64,000 nt of DNA from an uncultured Poribacteria bacterium (GTDB lineage: Bacteria; Poribacteria; WGA-4E; WGA-3G). Location: positions 4,576,001 to 4,640,000 of the forward strand of contig OX638351.1 in assembly GCA_951813565.1 (NCBI GenBank). The letters are read 5' to 3'. Below are positions 38 to 35,884 of this stretch, one piece after another (positions within the stretch are counted from its first letter, which is position 1; every line of letters starts with the position of its first letter). The position numbers and the translations under genes are program-made. The notes beneath the pieces are model-generated. The model was not told the origin of the DNA. It saw nothing but the letters and a program-made list of their open reading frames with translations, and did not search any database.

Positions 38-904
38 GTGGACACGAATACAACATTCGAGGAACAGAAGTTTAGATTGACGCCTGAAGAACGATCATCT
101 TGGGAAGAAAACGGATACTTTATCCGTTACGACGTTTTTACAAAAGAAGAAAACGACTCATTAGCACAAGTCGCCGATGACATTGCCACAGGAAAACGTC
201 CGTTCCCCGCCAAGCAAATCCACCAAAACGCGTTGGTCAGAGATGGAAAGGTAAAAGCAGCTGGTTCCAATGCGATGCACTGTATACATCATATTAATAA
301 ACATTCACCTGAATTCCTTGCACGAACACGCGACATTCGTTTAACTGATCCAATCGTTGACTTAATCGGTCCAGATATCCTCGGTCTCAACAATCTGTAT
401 ATCTGGAAACCGCCAAGAATCGGTTTAGGTTTCCCATGGCATCAGGATAAATGGTACTTTAACCATCAATACATAACTACAAAAACCGTTGGAACATGGA
501 CTGCCATTGATGATGCAGATTTAGACAATGGATGTCTTTACGTTATACCCGGCAGCCATAAGAACGAGGTTCATGAACATGTTCAACTTGAAGGTTCGCA
601 ACAAAACGAGTTTAAACAAGCACTCGGTGCAAGAGATGAGGATGAGGTTGCCGTTGAGGTGCCATCTGGTAGCGTTATTTTCTTTAACAACCAACTACTA
701 CATAAAAGCACAGATAACCACAGTGATCGTTTTCGCAGATGTAATGTTGCACATTATATCTGTGCACATTCAGAACGGGTTCAAGGTCAGAACAGAAACT
801 ATATTCGTCCAGTCTCATGGATAAGAGGTGATTCCTACTCAAAAAAGATGGAACCTGTTTATCACGATGCTTTACCAATCCCCGAAGAACAGGAGAATAA
901 ATGA
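38..904 (+). CDS. PhyH-family Fe(II)/2-oxoglutarate dioxygenase
   Basis: WHQD (HxD) motif, WTAIDDA..NGCLYVIPGSH, distal LLHKS..N...R; GGAG RBS before GTG. Confidence 0.9.
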   Translation: MDTNTTFEEQKFRLTPEERSSWEENGYFIRYDVFTKEENDSLAQVADDIATGKRPFPAKQIHQNALVRDGKVKAAGSNAMHCIHHINKHSPEFLARTRDIRLTDPIVDLIGPDILGLNNLYIWKPPRIGLGFPWHQDKWYFNHQYITTKTVGTWTAIDDADLDNGCLYVIPGSHKNEVHEHVQLEGSQQNEFKQALGARDEDEVAVEVPSGSVIFFNNQLLHKSTDNHSDRFRRCNVAHYICAHSERVQGQNRNYIRPVSWIRGDSYSKKMEPVYHDALPIPEEQENK

Positions 905-1758
905 GTACAAACACATCACCACCGGAACGCCAATTTGCCCTAACTTCTGATGAACTATCATTTTGGAATGATAACGGTTACTTTGTCCGTTATGACGTCT
1001 TCACAGAAAAAGATAACAACGTCTTACGGCAAATCGCTGATGACATTATTGATGGAAAACGACCTTTTCCGACAGAGAATATCGATCAAAACGCATTAGT
1101 CAGAGACGGAAAAGTTGAAGCATCTGGAATCCATGCAATCCATAAAATCCATCATGTGAGTTGTTATTGCCCTGAATTCCTCGCGCGTGTGCGTGACCAG
1201 CGCCTAACAGATCCAATTGTTGACCTACTCGGTCCAAATCTGCTGAGTCAAGGCAATCTGTATATCTGGAAAGCGCCAAAGATCGGTTTAGGTTTCCCCT
1301 GGCATCAAGATAAATGGTATTTTAACTGGCAGTATAAAACTGATATGACTGTCGGAACTTGGACTGCTATTGATGCTGCAGACCGAGACAACGGATGTTT
1401 ATACGTTATACCCGGTAGCCACAAATACGGGATTCTTGCGCATGAGGACCTGGAAGGTTCACAACAGAATGAGTTTAAGATAGCACGCGATGCCCGTGAC
1501 GAAGATGGTGTGGCTGTTGAAGTGCCGCCTGGAGCAGTAGTCTGGTTTAACAACCAACTTCTCCATAAAAGTACTGATAACCACAGTCTGCGCTTTCGGC
1601 GTTGTAATGTTGCACATTATATCAGTGGAAATGCAGAACGTGTCCCTAAAAAGGATGGCAAAAATGTCCGTCCCGTCATGTGGGTTCGCGGAGATATATA
1701 CTCAGAAAAGATGGAACCCGTCTATCGTGACGTTTTACCGATCCCGGAATCCGATTGA
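901..1758 (+). CDS. PhyH-family dioxygenase, tandem paralog of 38-904
   Basis: Same motifs, long identical blocks (IGLGFPWHQDKWYFN, NGCLYVIPGSHK); ATGA overlap with upstream stop. Confidence 0.9.
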   Translation: MSTNTSPPERQFALTSDELSFWNDNGYFVRYDVFTEKDNNVLRQIADDIIDGKRPFPTENIDQNALVRDGKVEASGIHAIHKIHHVSCYCPEFLARVRDQRLTDPIVDLLGPNLLSQGNLYIWKAPKIGLGFPWHQDKWYFNWQYKTDMTVGTWTAIDAADRDNGCLYVIPGSHKYGILAHEDLEGSQQNEFKIARDARDEDGVAVEVPPGAVVWFNNQLLHKSTDNHSLRFRRCNVAHYISGNAERVPKKDGKNVRPVMWVRGDIYSEKMEPVYRDVLPIPESD

Positions 1759-8830: not shown

Positions 8831-10051
8831 ATGTTTAATACCCTAACCGAACTCATAGAAAAAGTCCATCTCGGCGAAGACGCAACGATAGAATTCAAAA
8901 GAGAGATGCCGCGCAGAAGCAACCTTGCAGACGAAATTGCCGCGTTTGCCAATGCAAAAGGCGGTGTTATACTCATCGGTGTTGACGACGATAGCGAAAT
9001 CATTGGGTTAGACAAAGCGGACTTGGATAAGGCAGAAAAGGCAGTCGTTGAAATCTGCCGAGACAGCATTGACCCCATCGTTCTGATATTCACAGTAAAA
9101 TTACGGATTGACGATAAAAATCTGCTGAAAATAGAGGTGCCGAGAAGCCTATTTGTTCACAAAACCGCGAACGGTTACTTCATTCGCCAAGGAAGTAGCA
9201 AAAGAGAAATGTCCTCAGAGCAGTTAGCGCGGTTGTTTCAAACCCGATCACAGGCACGTATCATCGCCTTTGACGAACAATTCGTCCCGAACACACATCA
9301 AGGGACATTAAAAGAACCGCTCTACCGCCGATTTATCACAGAAGGTGCAGCGGAAGATGAGACAGAAGACCTACTCCTGAAAAGACGTTTACTCGTCAAG
9401 GAAGGTCAGGAGATTCGCGCCTCTATAGCCGGTATCTTGATGTGTCATGACACACCCGATGACTACCTTTACAACAGTTTCATTCAAGCGGTTTTGTATA
9501 AAGGGAAGGAAAAAGACGCAAACAATCAGTTTGATGCCACAGACATTCGGGGACCGTTAGACCAACAGATTATAGAAGCAATGAAATTCGCTGGTAGATA
9601 TAACGCGGTCGCAGCAAAGAAGGATATTGGCAGAATAGACGTCCCGCAATACAGCATGCGTGCCGTTTTTGAGGCAATCGTCAACGCTGTCGTGCATAGA
9701 GATTATTCAAAAAGCGGCTCAAAAATTCGGTTGTTTATGTTTGATGATCGGCTTGAACTTTATTCGCCTGGGGCATTGGCAAATACGGTGACAGTGGATA
9801 ATTTACGTTACAGCCAAGCCACGCGAAATGAACTGCTCGCGCGGCTACTTTCGGAAATTACGTTGGATGATAATATGAGAAGACAAGTAGTCCGCAGGCA
9901 CTTTTTAGAACGCAGAGGCGAAGGTGTCGGTATCATTCTGAACGAAAGCGAGGAATTGAGTGGAAAACCGCCTATCTATGAACTCTTTGACGAGGAATTA
10001 CGTCTGACAATTTTTGCTGCACACACAATTCCTCACTATTATTCAAAATGA
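8831..10051 (+). CDS. Schlafen/AlbA_2 domain + HATPase_c_4 protein (RecG-like regulator family)
   Basis: EDATIEFK, IAAFANAKGG..LIGVDD, EAIVNAVVHRDY, IRLFMFDDRLELYSPG, ERRGEG; start could be 8807. Confidence 0.85.
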   Translation: MFNTLTELIEKVHLGEDATIEFKREMPRRSNLADEIAAFANAKGGVILIGVDDDSEIIGLDKADLDKAEKAVVEICRDSIDPIVLIFTVKLRIDDKNLLKIEVPRSLFVHKTANGYFIRQGSSKREMSSEQLARLFQTRSQARIIAFDEQFVPNTHQGTLKEPLYRRFITEGAAEDETEDLLLKRRLLVKEGQEIRASIAGILMCHDTPDDYLYNSFIQAVLYKGKEKDANNQFDATDIRGPLDQQIIEAMKFAGRYNAVAAKKDIGRIDVPQYSMRAVFEAIVNAVVHRDYSKSGSKIRLFMFDDRLELYSPGALANTVTVDNLRYSQATRNELLARLLSEITLDDNMRRQVVRRHFLERRGEGVGIILNESEELSGKPPIYELFDEELRLTIFAAHTIPHYYSK

Positions 10052-11098
10052 ATACAGTGCCGTTATAGAAACCAACGCCCCCAATTTAAACGCATCGTTA
10101 CCCGATGCAGAATCATCGTATAAAGTTTCCTGCTGCATCGGCAACATAAACGTAATAGAGAGCGGGACGTTGTAAGGTGTCGCGATAGAAGTGCCCAGCG
10201 ATACCAGGCTAAAACGTAGTCCTGTATTGATGTCAATCTCACCATCCCAATGTGCATAAGATTGGTAAAGCCCAAGATAACTTGTCTGCAGCGAAAGCCA
10301 ATCGGTGATACGATAATTCAACCCACCAGTATAGGTAACATCCCATGAACCGCGATAGTTTTTGCTGTTTTCATAGAACGGATACTTACTTCTAACACTT
10401 GCGTTTGCCCTCAATCCGCCATAGACAGGAAAACTATAACGAAGGTCTGCAATCGGATTAAATGTGCCAGTACCGAATTGAATATGAAGATGTTCCATCC
10501 CCATATCTCCGAGTTTCCATGGGTCATTTTCAGTCTTACCGAACGGAATTGTTGTGCCAATTTTCGCGGTCAGCATATCATTTTGCCCGAAGATACCATG
10601 TTTGTGATAAGCTATCAAAAGATCCATATCTGATACACCTTGATAGGTTTCGTCTCGGTGATGAATTTCTTGATAGAGTAAAATCTTCCTTCTTACCTCA
10701 GGATCATCAATGTTCTCAAGTCCGCCGACGTTGGCATCTTGGTCTTTTATCTCATAAGGCACCACTGTTTCCAGTCGCAAATGCTTGTTAAGTTGATATT
10801 TTAGCCCAATATCAAACCGCACAACGTTCATCTCAACTTCATGTTTGTGAGCAGCCACAACTTCGGGTAGACTACCTATTGAAGATAATCCTTTAACCTC
10901 GTCGTGTCCACCTTGTGCATTAAACGTTCGCGTGCCAAAGGAGATTTGAAATTTCTTTTGCTCTGAAGTTAAACTAACTTCACTACCCTCACCTTGTGGG
11001 ATTGTGGGGTTGCTTCACGCACCTCAGCTCTCTTGTGCAAAACCGAGAGAAATGAAAATAAATTGAATGGCTAAAATTACAGAAAGGAGGTTTTTCAT
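10043..11098 (-). CDS. Putative exported selenoprotein (UxxU), His-rich outer-membrane beta-barrel/transporter-like
   Basis: GAGGT RBS, ATG 11098, signal peptide, in-frame TGA at codons 25 and 28, open frame to 10043, C-terminal Phe (LYSF). Confidence 0.8.
10975..11011 (-). promoter_or_regulatory. Candidate bacterial SECIS hairpin
   Basis: mRNA AAC-CC-CAC-A-AUCCCAC-AAG-GUGAGGGU-A-GUG-AA-GUU just 3' of the second UGA (folded by eye). Confidence 0.5.
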
Positions 11099-11191
11099 AT
11101 CTGTTTTTACCTCAGGAATGTGTTTTGTACAGTTAGTAGAATTTTATTGTTCAGTTGTTCGGTTAAATTCATTTTGTCCCAATCTCATTAT

Positions 11192-11221
11192 ATTTTAGCA
11201 GATTATTTCTCACCGTGTCAA
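11192..11221 (-). promoter_or_regulatory. sigma70-like promoter of the UxxU gene
   Basis: Minus strand TTGACA-18bp-TAAAAT with extended TG. Confidence 0.5.
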
Positions 11222-11244
11222 GGCAAATCAGAATCAAATTGATG

Positions 11245-11273
11245 TTGACATCTCTGAACTGATAACATATACT
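11245..11273 (+). promoter_or_regulatory. Divergent sigma70-like promoter of S9 peptidase
   Basis: TTGACA-17bp-TATACT. Confidence 0.55.
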
Positions 11274-11355
11274 TTATTGAGCAATAATTATGCGATAGAT
11301 AGGCAGAATTAGATTGGTTTGTGTCATGCAACATAAAACATAAATGAGGTAAAAG

Positions 11356-13551
11356 ATGGATCACAAAACGTTAAAGATTTCAGATATATTAAAAATGAAA
11401 TCTTTTTCAATAACTTCAATATTGCAGCTTTCGCCAGATGGTGAGTGGCTTGCCTATGTCGTGAAGGATCCCAATCGGAAACCCTCATCTCAACAAGAAA
11501 TCACAGAATTCTCAGGATCTCTATCTACTGGAGCACCAGTTCATGCTTATTGTAGTGAAATTTGGGTTACCAATATCAGGACAAACGAGTCATATAGGCT
11601 TGGTTCAGAAGTGGGAGTTGACTGGGCACCACGGTGGTCTCCAGATGGACGTTATCTTGCATTTTGTTCTGACCGAATGGGCGCACCACAACTTTGGGTT
11701 TGGGATAGGATAGAAAATAAACAGCGGCGAATTAGCGATAAACCGATTTGTCCAATAGACGATTTTGAAGCACCACAGTGGACATCAGATGGAAAACAAC
11801 TCATTTCAAGATTACGACCAGATGATATGGATACTTCCACCATAATTTCTACCGATTCTAATGGACAAGCAATAAACGTCTGGCAGACAGAAACCGACGA
11901 ACAGTTTTCTTCAGAGGATAAACTAAATCCAGTCGCTTATCTTAAGGCTGATTTAGCGGTTTTCAATTTTGAGACGGGGGACGTATCGATTCTGATGCGA
12001 GGATTATATTCATTAGACATGTCTCTTTCTCCGAATAACACTACAGTTGCGGTAATGAACTTGACAGGACCAGAAAAATTGACATCTCAGGCAACCCTTT
12101 TTGAGTTGTTATTAGTGCCTTTAGATGGAACACCAATTCGACGCTTGGCTACAAAAATCAGACATGGAGCAAGAGTCGTAAGTTGGGCACCAGATGGTGA
12201 ACAGCTGGTATATGCTGCTCACCCGGATGGCCTATTTTTAGCTTCAACACAGAATGAGGAACAGAAAAACCTTACTGCGAACATTGCAGAGAGCCCTCGT
12301 TTTTTCACACGTCCGTTATGGAGTACATCGGGAGATACGATTTTTTGCGGTTTCGATGAAAATGTGTGGGAACTTGCAGCAGATGGGAGTGGGGCGCGGA
12401 AACTTACAGAAGGCTTGAATCGAGATATCGTTGGCATCATAGCGAAGGTGGGAACACATACCGTTTGGCAGTCAAGCGAAGAACGATCTATCTGTATTCA
12501 AACACACGATCGTGAATCAAAGAAAGATGGTTTCTATATGTTGAACACTGCTGAAGCAAGTGCTACCTGTCTGTTTGAGGAGCCGATTCACCTATATCAT
12601 CCTTGGTCGATTTTAGAGGATTTTGAGGTTGTGGGTGATGGCACACAGATTATATATAGATCAGAAGATACGACTGGACCAGAAGAAATCTGGACATTCG
12701 ATATAGCTACAGGAAAACGACGCCAAGTTACTGAGCTCAATCCACATTTATATAATTTAGACTTTGGTGAAATCCGTATCATCAAATCAGAAACAGTGGA
12801 AGATCAATGTTTCCGTCATGTTTTGATGCTGCCAGCCAACTACGAAGCAGGAAAGTGTTACCCTTTAATTGCATGGGTTTATCCCGGAGAGAGCTTATCA
12901 AGTTTTGCTTATTGTTTTGGGTTCCAAAAGAGAACGGAGATTAACTTTCAACTACTTGCAGCACAAGGTTTTGCAGTCCTTGGTGTTGATATGCCACTTG
13001 AATCCAACGAATCGCTAAAAGATATGTCTGAATTCGTGCTATCGGTAGTAGACGAAGTAATTGAAATGGGGATCGCCGATCCAAATCGTTTGGGGTTAAT
13101 GGGATTCAGTTACGGTGGATACAGTACGGCGGGAGTGATTACGCAAACCACTCGTTTCAAAGTAGCTGCGTGCGGCGGGGGTCTCTACAATCTGACCAGC
13201 TTTTACGGGCAACTTTCTAAACAGGGACATAGTAGCCGCATTGGTTGGGCAGAAGAGGGGCAGGGACGTATGGGAGGTTCACTCTGGGAACAACGCCAGC
13301 GATACATTGATAATTCGCCGATATTTCATTTGGATAAGATTGAAACACCTTTATTCATCTATTGCGGTGATGGTTTTGAAGGGGCTGACTACGCGCAATC
13401 TGGAGAACTTTTCTCCGGATTACGTAGACTAAATAAAAAAGCTACTTTCGCATGGTACAGAGGCGAAGGACATCATCCATTTGGTTGGAGACTTGAGTGC
13501 CAAACTGATTGCTGGGAACGAATTTTGGATTGGTTTGAAAAACATCTATAG
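11356..13551 (+). CDS. S9 family peptidase (acylaminoacyl/prolyl oligopeptidase) with PD40 propeller
   Basis: WSPDG repeats; GFSYGG nucleophile; EGH catalytic His. Confidence 0.9.
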   Translation: MDHKTLKISDILKMKSFSITSILQLSPDGEWLAYVVKDPNRKPSSQQEITEFSGSLSTGAPVHAYCSEIWVTNIRTNESYRLGSEVGVDWAPRWSPDGRYLAFCSDRMGAPQLWVWDRIENKQRRISDKPICPIDDFEAPQWTSDGKQLISRLRPDDMDTSTIISTDSNGQAINVWQTETDEQFSSEDKLNPVAYLKADLAVFNFETGDVSILMRGLYSLDMSLSPNNTTVAVMNLTGPEKLTSQATLFELLLVPLDGTPIRRLATKIRHGARVVSWAPDGEQLVYAAHPDGLFLASTQNEEQKNLTANIAESPRFFTRPLWSTSGDTIFCGFDENVWELAADGSGARKLTEGLNRDIVGIIAKVGTHTVWQSSEERSICIQTHDRESKKDGFYMLNTAEASATCLFEEPIHLYHPWSILEDFEVVGDGTQIIYRSEDTTGPEEIWTFDIATGKRRQVTELNPHLYNLDFGEIRIIKSETVEDQCFRHVLMLPANYEAGKCYPLIAWVYPGESLSSFAYCFGFQKRTEINFQLLAAQGFAVLGVDMPLESNESLKDMSEFVLSVVDEVIEMGIADPNRLGLMGFSYGGYSTAGVITQTTRFKVAACGGGLYNLTSFYGQLSKQGHSSRIGWAEEGQGRMGGSLWEQRQRYIDNSPIFHLDKIETPLFIYCGDGFEGADYAQSGELFSGLRRLNKKATFAWYRGEGHHPFGWRLECQTDCWERILDWFEKHL

Positions 13552-34837: not shown

Positions 34838-35884
34838 CTAATGCACCTCAATATGTGCACCATCTGCTGCGATGACTTCACCAATTACCGCGGCTTCAGG
34901 ACAATCATCAGCGTGAAGTTCTTTTACGGCTGCATCGGCATTTTCTGCTGGCAGCGCAAATAATAGACCGCCTGACGTTTCTGCTTCCATCAAAATATGG
35001 CGCATCTCCTCTGAAACTGATGACCTGAACGAGACCTTATCCGAAAGGAATTTCGTATTTGCCAGATATGCTTGCGTGTAGGTTTTCTTTTTAACGAGTG
35101 ACGGAGCATCTTCAAAGTACGGAATCGCACTGCTATCTATTTTTAGACGCACATTGTTACCTGCTGCCATTTCTGACGCGTGTCCTAACAATCCATAACC
35201 TGTGACATCTGTGCATGCGGATGCATTATATTTTAACATAACTGCAGATGCAGAAGAGTTGAGTCGCGCCATAGATTCAACCAATTGCGGCAAGACTTCT
35301 TCACCAATTTTGTTGAATTTCAAGCCTGTCGTCAGAATGCCGATACCGAGATTTTTCGTTAAAATGAGAACATCACCGGGACGCGCGCCGTAGTTTTTTA
35401 CAAACTTTTCTGGATGCACAATACCGGTTACTGCAAGTCCATACATCAGTTCTGGTGAATCCACCGTATGCCCACCGAGAAGTGCTGCTCCTGCTTCTGC
35501 AGCCTTTTCAGCTCCTCCTCTTACAATATCACCAAGGATCGATAGATCAAGGTCATCCCTGGGCCAGCAGGTAATATTCAACGCAGTTTTCGGTGTGCCG
35601 CCCATGCTATAAACGTCGCTCAGTGAATTTGTGGCTGCAATCGCGCCGAATGTATAGGGATCATCTACGATAGGGGTAAAATAGTCCACCGTGTTCACAA
35701 GCGCAAGGTCATCAGAAATACGGTATATCCCCGCGTCATCAGAGGTTTCTGTGCCAACAAGCAGGTTCGGGTCAGTAGATTTCGGAAGGTTACTTAAAAT
35801 GTGTGAAAGCTCGCCCGGAGCAAGTTTTGACGCTCACCCAGCGCATTTGACGGTTGCAGTAAGACGGATTTTCTTGTTTGTCAT
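34838..35884 (-). CDS. selD: Selenophosphate synthetase, Sec-containing (U17)
   Basis: MTNKKIRLTATVKCAG-TGA-ASKL...DDAG...TVDYFTPIVDDP, GGHT, DVTGYGLLGH, ETSGGLL; TGA at 35834-35836 in frame. Confidence 0.95.
35808..35827 (-). promoter_or_regulatory. Candidate SECIS of selD
   Basis: mRNA AAAA-CUUGCU-CCG-GGCGAG-CUUU hairpin just downstream of UGA. Confidence 0.55.

Follow-up and report, generated by a model that had tools for sequence, protein, structure and literature searches.

In the searched tables of two selenoproteome reviews, proteins with two selenocysteine (Sec, U) residues spaced as UxxU fall into a peroxiredoxin (Prx)-like family, an HMA-like metal-binding protein (NF041115) and an FmdB-type regulator, and the only outer-membrane barrel listed is GSU2204, of the MtrB-PioB type (NF041027) (PMC13188914, PMC9312934). 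SelL is described as a Prx-like protein with UxxU in the excerpt of PMC2398784. The excerpt of a report on new selenoprotein families (10.1101/2022.07.06.499078) mentions MerT-type selenoproteins and no barrel. Here we analyze a gene on the minus strand (10043-11098) of a 64,000-nucleotide stretch of contig OX638351.1 from an uncultured Poribacteria bacterium, hereafter the window. Taking its conservation, its predicted fold and the selenocysteine machinery of its genome together, we consider that it very probably encodes a real, uncatalogued outer-membrane barrel with two Sec residues.

Outer-membrane copper proteins of the PcoB/CopB type combine a barrel with a disordered periplasmic N-terminal extension rich in metal ligands, which are Met and His, and are found in copper loci. 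Known members of the COG4313 channels carry hydrophobic compounds and are not known to carry metals. The protein of the window has no Pfam CopB match, and its candidate ligands are Cys/Sec where those of PcoB/CopB are Met/His; compared with COG4313 channels, it adds an N-terminal (U/C)xx(U/C)-x-NP tip and an invariant set of His residues. The NF041027 family, which gave no NCBIfam match to it at E ≤ 1, combines a single Sec with a CXXCH haem motif and serves extracellular electron transfer, whereas two Sec would stand here as UxxU at the mature N-terminus. UxxU_metal_bind (NF041115) is likewise a two-Sec UxxU family with Cys counterparts and presumed soft-metal binding, but it is a small soluble ferredoxin-fold domain, while the motif of the window lies on the tail of a barrel. 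A reading of this locus made from the sequence only had drawn a comparison with SelL. The UxxU spacing is indeed common to both proteins but the kind of protein is not, since SelL is Prx-like with a thioredoxin fold and the protein studied here is a predicted barrel without AhpC-TSA or thioredoxin match.

A two-Sec barrel family is not among the matching entries in the tables of the two reviews (PMC13188914, PMC9312934), and literature searches on Poribacteria selenoproteins, UxxU outer-membrane proteins and HMA/mercury selenoproteins did not turn one up, subscription papers and supplementary tables being places that could hold a description. No family model for the barrel, even in its Cys form, was found in Pfam or NCBIfam. 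The same sequence-only reading had not recognized a described selenoprotein family in this gene, which agrees with its absence from the searched catalogue tables and from NCBIfam. Known kinds of thing, namely Sec/Cys-pair proteins and 12-stranded channels, are thus joined in a new architecture.

The reading frame and its two UGA codons

In the explanation that we consider best, and likely, both in-frame UGA codons would be read as Sec and the product exported as a two-Sec outer-membrane barrel, the soft-metal mechanism being graded separately below. The gene comprises the following features.

10043..11098, minus strand: complete coding sequence, 351 codons plus a terminal TGA at 10043-10045
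11036..11098, minus strand: signal peptide, codons 1-21 (MKNLLSVILAIQFIFISLGFA), predicted by eye, with likely cleavage between GFA and Q
11024..11026, minus strand: putative first selenocysteine codon (U25), an in-frame TGA, with TGA or Cys in relatives
11015..11017, minus strand: putative second selenocysteine codon (U28), an in-frame TGA, with Cys in CPAC and CAxC homologues
10952..11035, minus strand: predicted flexible mature N-terminal tail, residues 22-49 (about 28 residues), carrying U-G-A-U, with low predicted local distance difference test (pLDDT) values
10046..10951, minus strand: predicted 12-stranded beta-barrel, residues 50-351, with C-terminal Phe, from AlphaFold2 and Foldseek

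The frame begins with MKNLLSVILAIQFIFISLGFA, continues as QES-U-GA-U-SNPTIPQ and terminates in ALYSF; up to the first UGA it reads MKNLLSVILAIQFIFISLGFAQES, followed by U-GA-U-SNPTIPQ. From the ATG (11098-11096) to the terminal TGA (10045-10043), no in-frame stop occurs besides the two TGAs. The program-made list of open reading frames (ORFs) starts the gene at a GTG at 10858, 80 codons downstream of the ATG. The extension of this ORF by 80 codons, proposed in the sequence-only reading, is borne out by the frame and by its conservation, and the coordinates, ATG, GAGGT, promoter, two TGAs, His motifs and terminal Phe given there are all present at their positions. The His motifs of the body are GGHDE, HKHE, IHHRDET and EHLHIQFGTGT.

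To follow the two codons among relatives, a six-frame search was performed on 61 genomes, that of the window and 60 relatives. The gene was found in 54 of them, with 88 near-full-length matches, of which 85 carry two TGAs and three carry one. The remaining three rows of this search correspond to one weak match and to a copy split over two rows. This split copy, the third of its genome (G021:C1:1198170-1198765, minus strand), lies in two frames, retains only residues 8-107 and 264-351 and is probably a decaying pseudogene. Orthologues in metagenome-assembled genomes of Candidatus Poribacteria are 89-93% identical. Two routes gathered 130 loci, 26 of them duplicates; (U/C)xxU stands in frame with the gene in every one, as (U/C)xxUSNP in 129 and UGAUSNL in one.

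Fifty gene copies were read directly. Each of them has an ATG and a hydrophobic, signal-peptide-like N-terminus ending in A or G before Q, then Q-(E/D)-(S/A), the motif and S-N-P. The motif is U-G-A-U in most copies, with Cys at the first position in three (CPAU, CGAU and CSAU). At the first site the codon is TGA in 47 genes, TGT in one and TGC in two, and at the second site it is TGA in 50 of 50. The flanking codons vary synonymously (Gly: GGT 20, GGC 24, GGG 3, GGA 1; Ala: GCG 35, GCC 7, GCT 6, GCA 2), and the preceding Ser is drawn from both codon families. Among 23 indel-free orthologues, codons 22-80 have 23, 16 and 45 variable columns of 59 at codon positions 1, 2 and 3, and the accepted body has 127, 79 and 249 of 271, a pattern indicating that the extension evolves as protein-coding sequence across the TGAs. 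A chance open frame is excluded because the frame, the signal peptide and both TGAs are kept down to 34% protein identity, and also because codons 22-80 show this coding substitution pattern. The upstream segment is therefore conserved and under protein-level selection, and TGA or Cys occupies both positions in relatives, never Trp, Arg or another residue, two points on which the sequence-only reading depended.

Public annotation truncates the gene, since each of the 120 database proteins among the matches listed covers 68-89% of the query, and the called protein, lacking the extension, lacks the signal peptide. As judged from sequence comparison, 10043-11098 on the minus strand is confirmed as a single real gene, belonging to a Candidatus Poribacteria genome, whose database starts appear to be cut short. 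The gene's own stop is TGA, so that Sec decoding must depend on context.

Cys counterparts were sought with a profile search of 1.84 billion representatives, which yielded 495 relatives at E ≤ 0.001. Where these include the N-terminus, they are full-length proteins with ordinary annotation, and both positions, right behind the signal peptide, hold Cys, as ACPACSNP in P0126, P0128, P0136, P0142, P0173 and P0241, and as ACAGCRNP, ACPACQNP, ACAACSNP or ACSGCTNP in more distant relatives. The CxxC forms were considered as lipoproteins, an assignment that was dropped, as the residues before the Cys are, by eye, AxA-like signal-peptidase I sites and not lipoboxes. Two database entries, P0163 and P0165, show W at the TGA positions (AQDS-W-GA-W-SNP), evidently the product of a gene caller using a table in which TGA is Trp. 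Among 67 metagenomic loci, 34 carry UxxU, 24 CxxC and four CxxU, and five are without N-terminus; they include a second Sec lineage, UPAUSNP, parallel to the Cys lineage CPACSNP. On these alignments, the exchange of Sec and Cys at both sites is the classical Sec/Cys signature.

In a tree of 123 rows, midpoint-rooted on a distant all-Cys group, the Sec/Cys labels require six changes, versus 32.8 when shuffled. The UPAU lineages are basal. The Poribacteria UU clade (80 rows, support 99), within which CxxU arises at least three times, has as its sister a CC clade of 22 rows (support 98). The direction of the Sec/Cys change is uncertain because of the root and the long branches; Sec lies deep in the SNP clade with the CPAC group nested within it, and selenium use may thus be ancestral there and not a late substitution. 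All SNP-type members, whether Sec or Cys forms, have Gln immediately behind the predicted cleavage site (Gln22), an invariance suggestive of an N-terminal pyroglutamate or of a part in recognition.

Most genomes of the genus have two copies of the gene, and one (G004) has a third, of CPAU type. The UxxU barrel paralogue in the genome of the window (G000:C1:2495435-2496514, minus strand; L051 / L151:9433-10539) is 56% identical, and a 143-residue membrane-like ORF comes next after it.

Two candidate expression signals precede the start codon.

11109..11113, minus strand: ribosome-binding site GAGGT, 10 nucleotides before the ATG
11192..11221, minus strand: sigma-70-like promoter, TTGACA / 18 nucleotides / TAAAAT with a TG extension, 11 of 12 positions, by consensus match alone

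A GAGG-type motif precedes the ATG in most genus-level orthologues too. The peptidase S9 gene (11356-13551), which diverges from this one, is faced by a second near-consensus promoter-like site (11245-11273, plus strand; TTGACA / 17 nucleotides / TATACT, 11 of 12 positions); with such sites on both strands, the 260-bp spacer has back-to-back candidate promoters. The terminator scan found no terminator-like site 3′ of the stop codon, its sole site (10109-10091) being inside the gene. RNA-library contigs match the locus. One is exact (X1, 293 nucleotides, 10705-10997) and reaches into the region that gene callers discard, and another (X5, 1133 nucleotides, 10045-11071), from a relative about 91% alike, bridges both UGAs. 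None covers 11075-11300, so they are uninformative on the transcript start.

RNA structure and selenocysteine machinery

A conserved RNA structure specific to the Sec forms is present downstream of the second UGA. It consists of two hairpins, of which the second is the best candidate for a selenocysteine insertion sequence (SECIS) by its conserved G-U loop.

10987..11009, minus strand: hairpin 1 (CCCCAC...GUGAGG), starting five nucleotides after the second UGA
10965..10981, minus strand: hairpin 2 (GAAGUUA-GUU-UAACUUC)

Run unaided on 34 distinct sequences, RNAalifold returned a 7-bp hairpin with a GUU loop, which is hairpin 2. Its positions are 92.9% paired and four of its seven pairs have changed on both sides; pair 63-69, for example, is UA in 16 sequences, CG in 14 and GU in four. 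The helices of hairpin 1 are 78-84% paired, again with compensated positions (pair 27-52: CG 12, UA 12, UG 6; pair 31-45: AU 12, GC 8). Overall, 86.9% of the cells are paired in the two-hairpin model, versus 77.2% in shuffles, none of 500 reaching the model, and 31-58% with slid partners. The window's own hairpin 2 folds at -9.2 kcal/mol (z = -3.67), a value that none of 200 shuffles equalled. SelB recognizes a G-U in the apical loop.

As a control between classes, the 66 nucleotides after the second U/C codon were folded for each gene and compared with mononucleotide shuffles. A z-score below -2 was obtained in 37 of 51 UGAU genes, 8 of 12 UPAU genes and 3 of 6 CxAU genes; among all-Cys genes the figure was only 4 of 17. 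The two-hairpin layout returns in the UPAU genes with unrelated stem sequences, the second loop having GGU(C/U) or GUU.

Several observations pull in the other direction. In the window's own hairpin 1, GAG in place of GGG creates a C·A mismatch, and this hairpin does not outperform shuffles (z = -0.73). A rival long-range hairpin from the first UGA is partly supported (77.3% paired, score 0.206 versus 0.367) and ranks below the two-hairpin model, the shuffle controls of both folds ignoring relatedness, and the shuffling in the class control was of the simple kind. The usual bacterial distance from UGA to SECIS loop is shorter than the roughly 40 nucleotides that separate the loop of hairpin 2 from the second UGA. 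Finally, the RNA contigs are weak evidence of expression because RNA libraries can contain DNA.

The machinery for Sec insertion is complete in the genome of the window, a single 5.43-Mb contig, as far as selA (607 bits), selB (344 bits), the adjoining tRNA-Sec gene (78 bits) and selD are concerned, all above curated cutoffs. The sequence-only reading, which had placed SelD in the window and made its proposal hang on selA, selB and selC, is upheld here.

34838..35884, minus strand: selD, 371.7 bits, one TGA

The selD match extends over 4610940-4611866 of the genome, that is 34940-35866 of the window. SelD is itself a selenoprotein, with an in-frame TGA at 35836-35834 in the motif KCAG-U-ASK, and the table-11 ORF list, which starts it at a downstream GTG, gives an apparently truncated product of 286 residues. 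When the selD SECIS was taken for comparison, the region did not fold more stably than shuffles (z = 0.85) and yielded no organism-specific SECIS consensus.

The predicted barrel and its invariant residues

An AlphaFold2 model was obtained from a 29-sequence alignment and its strands were assigned by DSSP. The model is a barrel (mean pLDDT 77.7, predicted TM-score 0.77) whose strands fit 12 transmembrane strands, in line with the outer-membrane barrel put forward in the sequence-only reading. Residues 16-32 and 36-45, including the UxxU segment, have pLDDT values below 50. A signal peptide (by eye), an even-stranded barrel and a C-terminal aromatic residue, which together characterize outer-membrane proteins, are all found.

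After the predicted cleavage, the mature protein begins Q-E-S-U-G-A-U-S-N-P. Q22, U25, A27, U28, S29, N30, P31 and P34 are invariant in the 29 sequences, as are seven His residues (His65, 84, 86, 146, 147, 203 and 205). With the most distant members aligned, six of the seven His and CxxC-x-NP stay invariant. Judging by the strand order, the His residues would be placed in loops L2 and L3 and toward the extracellular half, with both termini on the periplasmic side. The tail would be situated at the periplasmic mouth of the channel, as expected from the usual topology of even-stranded barrels.

The best structural match of the barrel in the PDB by Foldseek is FapF, the amyloid-secretion channel (5O65/5O67; E 2.5e-13 for 5o67, TM-scores 0.55/0.66), with which it shares 13-14% identity and no sequence-level relation; no fap genes lie nearby and the N-terminal element differs. 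The COG4313 channel of Pseudomonas putida (4RL8, Phenol_MetA_deg, PF13557; E 2.1e-10, TM-scores 0.58/0.74, 12 strands) comes next, then FadL and TodX. In the ESM Atlas, a Cys form adjoins PF13557 'transporter' clusters of Myxococcota and Bacteroidota, plus one Poribacteria cluster, and a few database relatives are already annotated as PF13557. PF13557 is not among the Pfam matches of the window's protein at E ≤ 0.01, and the best relative reaches 18.3 bits versus a cutoff of 22. The only Pfam match of the window's protein to a barrel family is a sub-threshold one to OMP_b-brl (22.5 bits versus 28.7), no NCBIfam family was found for the barrel in Sec or Cys form (none at E ≤ 1 for the Sec form), and a PDB sequence search with the family profile gave nothing significant (best E 0.25).

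Soft-metal handling and competing explanations

Evidence for a function comes from relatives outside Poribacteria. We scanned 145 neighbouring ORFs from 18 metagenomic loci, leaving out the near-duplicates L159, L168, L173 and L183; two loci are without upstream flank and 16 were usable. In 12 of these 16, the same-strand gene directly upstream of the barrel encodes a signal peptide, an HMA domain and a thioredoxin domain (WCGPC). Reading two TGAs of an HMA motif as Sec (GMT-U-PSG-U) reveals a 13th such partner, at L171. In 7 of 10 loci, the stop of the partner overlaps the start of the barrel. L172 has a MerT-HMA fusion in this upstream position, and L187 has nothing comparable. The HMA domain of the partner has NF041115 as its best NCBIfam match (53.4 bits in the Sec form P0291, below the family cutoff of 95). 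Other genes nearby encode MerT-HMA (four loci), MerA-like flavin disulfide reductases (two), ArsR (three), CsoR-type repressors (five) and P1B-ATPases (two), as well as CusBA, a multicopper oxidase and MbnP/MauG. A metagenomic Cys-form barrel of 442 residues, P0136, bears a C-terminal HMA domain with a CGMC motif (43.3 bits versus a cutoff of 24.8), a fusion that, on sequence grounds, links the barrel family to heavy-metal binding.

Two of these loci have unusual partners. In the L171 gene (6150-6947, plus strand), partner of a UPAU-type barrel, the spacing of the two Sec exceeds that of the usual CxxC by one residue, and the N-terminus resembles a lipoprotein signal. At L169, a DDE transposase (162-1642, plus strand) stands in place of the HMA part, with a 111-residue thioredoxin remnant before the barrel.

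The barrel belongs to a widespread Cys/Sec family that is probably concerned with soft-metal handling. The soft-metal idea of the sequence-only reading gains support from the HMA fusion and the mer/cop-type neighbours of relatives, and stays at the level of inference. On the strength of the HMA partners, these neighbours and the P0136 fusion, we propose that the (U/C)xx(U/C) tip may serve, at the mouth of a channel lined with His, as a soft-metal ligand in cooperation with HMA carriers of the periplasm, a proposal to which we give close to an even chance. The tip would bind a soft metal such as Cu(I) or Hg(II) and pass it, in one direction or the other, between HMA-type carriers and the channel. 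The HMA-thioredoxin partner, co-translated in most relatives outside Poribacteria, could supply the metal or keep the motif reduced, and selenium would offer tighter binding and easier re-reduction in the oxidizing periplasm. More tentatively, the whole might represent an unrecognized outer-membrane step of Hg(II)/Cu(I) trafficking, a two-gene module in which a His-lined 12-stranded channel with a dithiol/diselenol 'fishing line' works with the HMA-thioredoxin protein, Sec being present in both partners in some lineages.

This reading has to contend with the surroundings of the Poribacteria genes, because the metal function rests on relatives of the gene under study. In the window the gene is monocistronic, between a converging Schlafen/AlbA_2 gene and the diverging peptidase S9 gene, with no metal genes adjoining. 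The paralogue in the same genome has an aldo/keto reductase, a lipid A acyltransferase and an S41 peptidase as neighbours, and the aldo/keto reductase is upstream in all 45 Poribacteria loci of the paralogue group (L106-L150). A search of the window's genome with the partner P0292 found no HMA-thioredoxin protein, only weak thioredoxin-domain matches (best E 3.6e-6). Complex prediction for a Cys-type barrel and its HMA-thioredoxin neighbour (L153) gave a score of 0.00, which counts neither for nor against binding. Downstream in the paralogue group, 42 of 45 loci have a same-strand gene for a 721-residue family-5 solute-binding protein, and 39 have one for an ATP-binding cassette (ABC) permease. 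Since family 5 includes nickel and peptide binders, an outer-membrane channel paired with an importer is a possible arrangement there.

The same two-Sec barrel could instead use its UxxU/CxxC tip as a redox switch, a diselenide or disulfide that plugs or opens the channel, with the neighbouring thioredoxin as reductase and a cargo that need not be metal. The classical WCGPC site of the partner would suit this role, CxxC is a typical redox motif, and the UxxU of SelL is cited as a diselenide redox motif in a reference title in the excerpt of PMC2398784. The closest folds point the same way, FapF and COG4313 channels. Such channels are gated by an N-terminal plug. The partner, however, always has an HMA domain too, one barrel is fused to HMA directly, the surrounding genes are metal-specific and the seven invariant His suggest metal ligation, so that we regard the switch as unlikely. 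A cargo of hydrophobic or other small non-metal solutes, carried by a real two-Sec barrel in the manner of COG4313 or FadL, would agree with the Foldseek matches to the COG4313 channel, FadL and TodX, with the PF13557 'phenol degradation/transporter' clusters in the ESM Atlas, with the family-5 ABC importer adjoining the paralogue group in 42 of 45 loci and with the lack of metal genes next to the window's gene; the metal neighbourhood of relatives would then not be transferable to Poribacteria. But Poribacteria share the motif and the His without variation with the relatives in metal loci, and the PF13557 match is below threshold, which makes this explanation distinctly improbable.

The last alternative denies the Sec residues themselves and has the protein start at the GTG at 10858 behind a relic upstream frame, or the UGAs read through as Trp, Cys or Arg. 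All public gene calls among the matches listed do begin after the TGAs, and P0163 and P0165 show W at both positions. Against this, conservation to 34% identity, with a coding pattern, extends to the upstream frame, its signal peptide and the two TGAs, and a barrel without signal peptide could not be exported. Moreover, TGA is the gene's own stop and hence not generally a sense codon, Cys alone replaces the TGAs, and the W entries fit a caller with a TGA=Trp table. We therefore consider this last possibility extremely improbable and retain the exported two-Sec barrel.

The finding adds an exported two-Sec outer-membrane family to a selenoprotein catalogue otherwise composed almost entirely of soluble redox enzymes. 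The public gene calls for its Sec forms, among the matches listed, are truncated and without signal peptide, and the Sec positions point to the functional centre of the barrel family. The outer-membrane step is poorly defined for mer systems, and the operon link to HMA-thioredoxin, MerT, MerA-like and CsoR genes makes the barrel a testable candidate for the handling of Hg(II)/Cu(I) or its crossing at the outer membrane. The finding also bears on the economy of selenium and metals in sponge symbioses.

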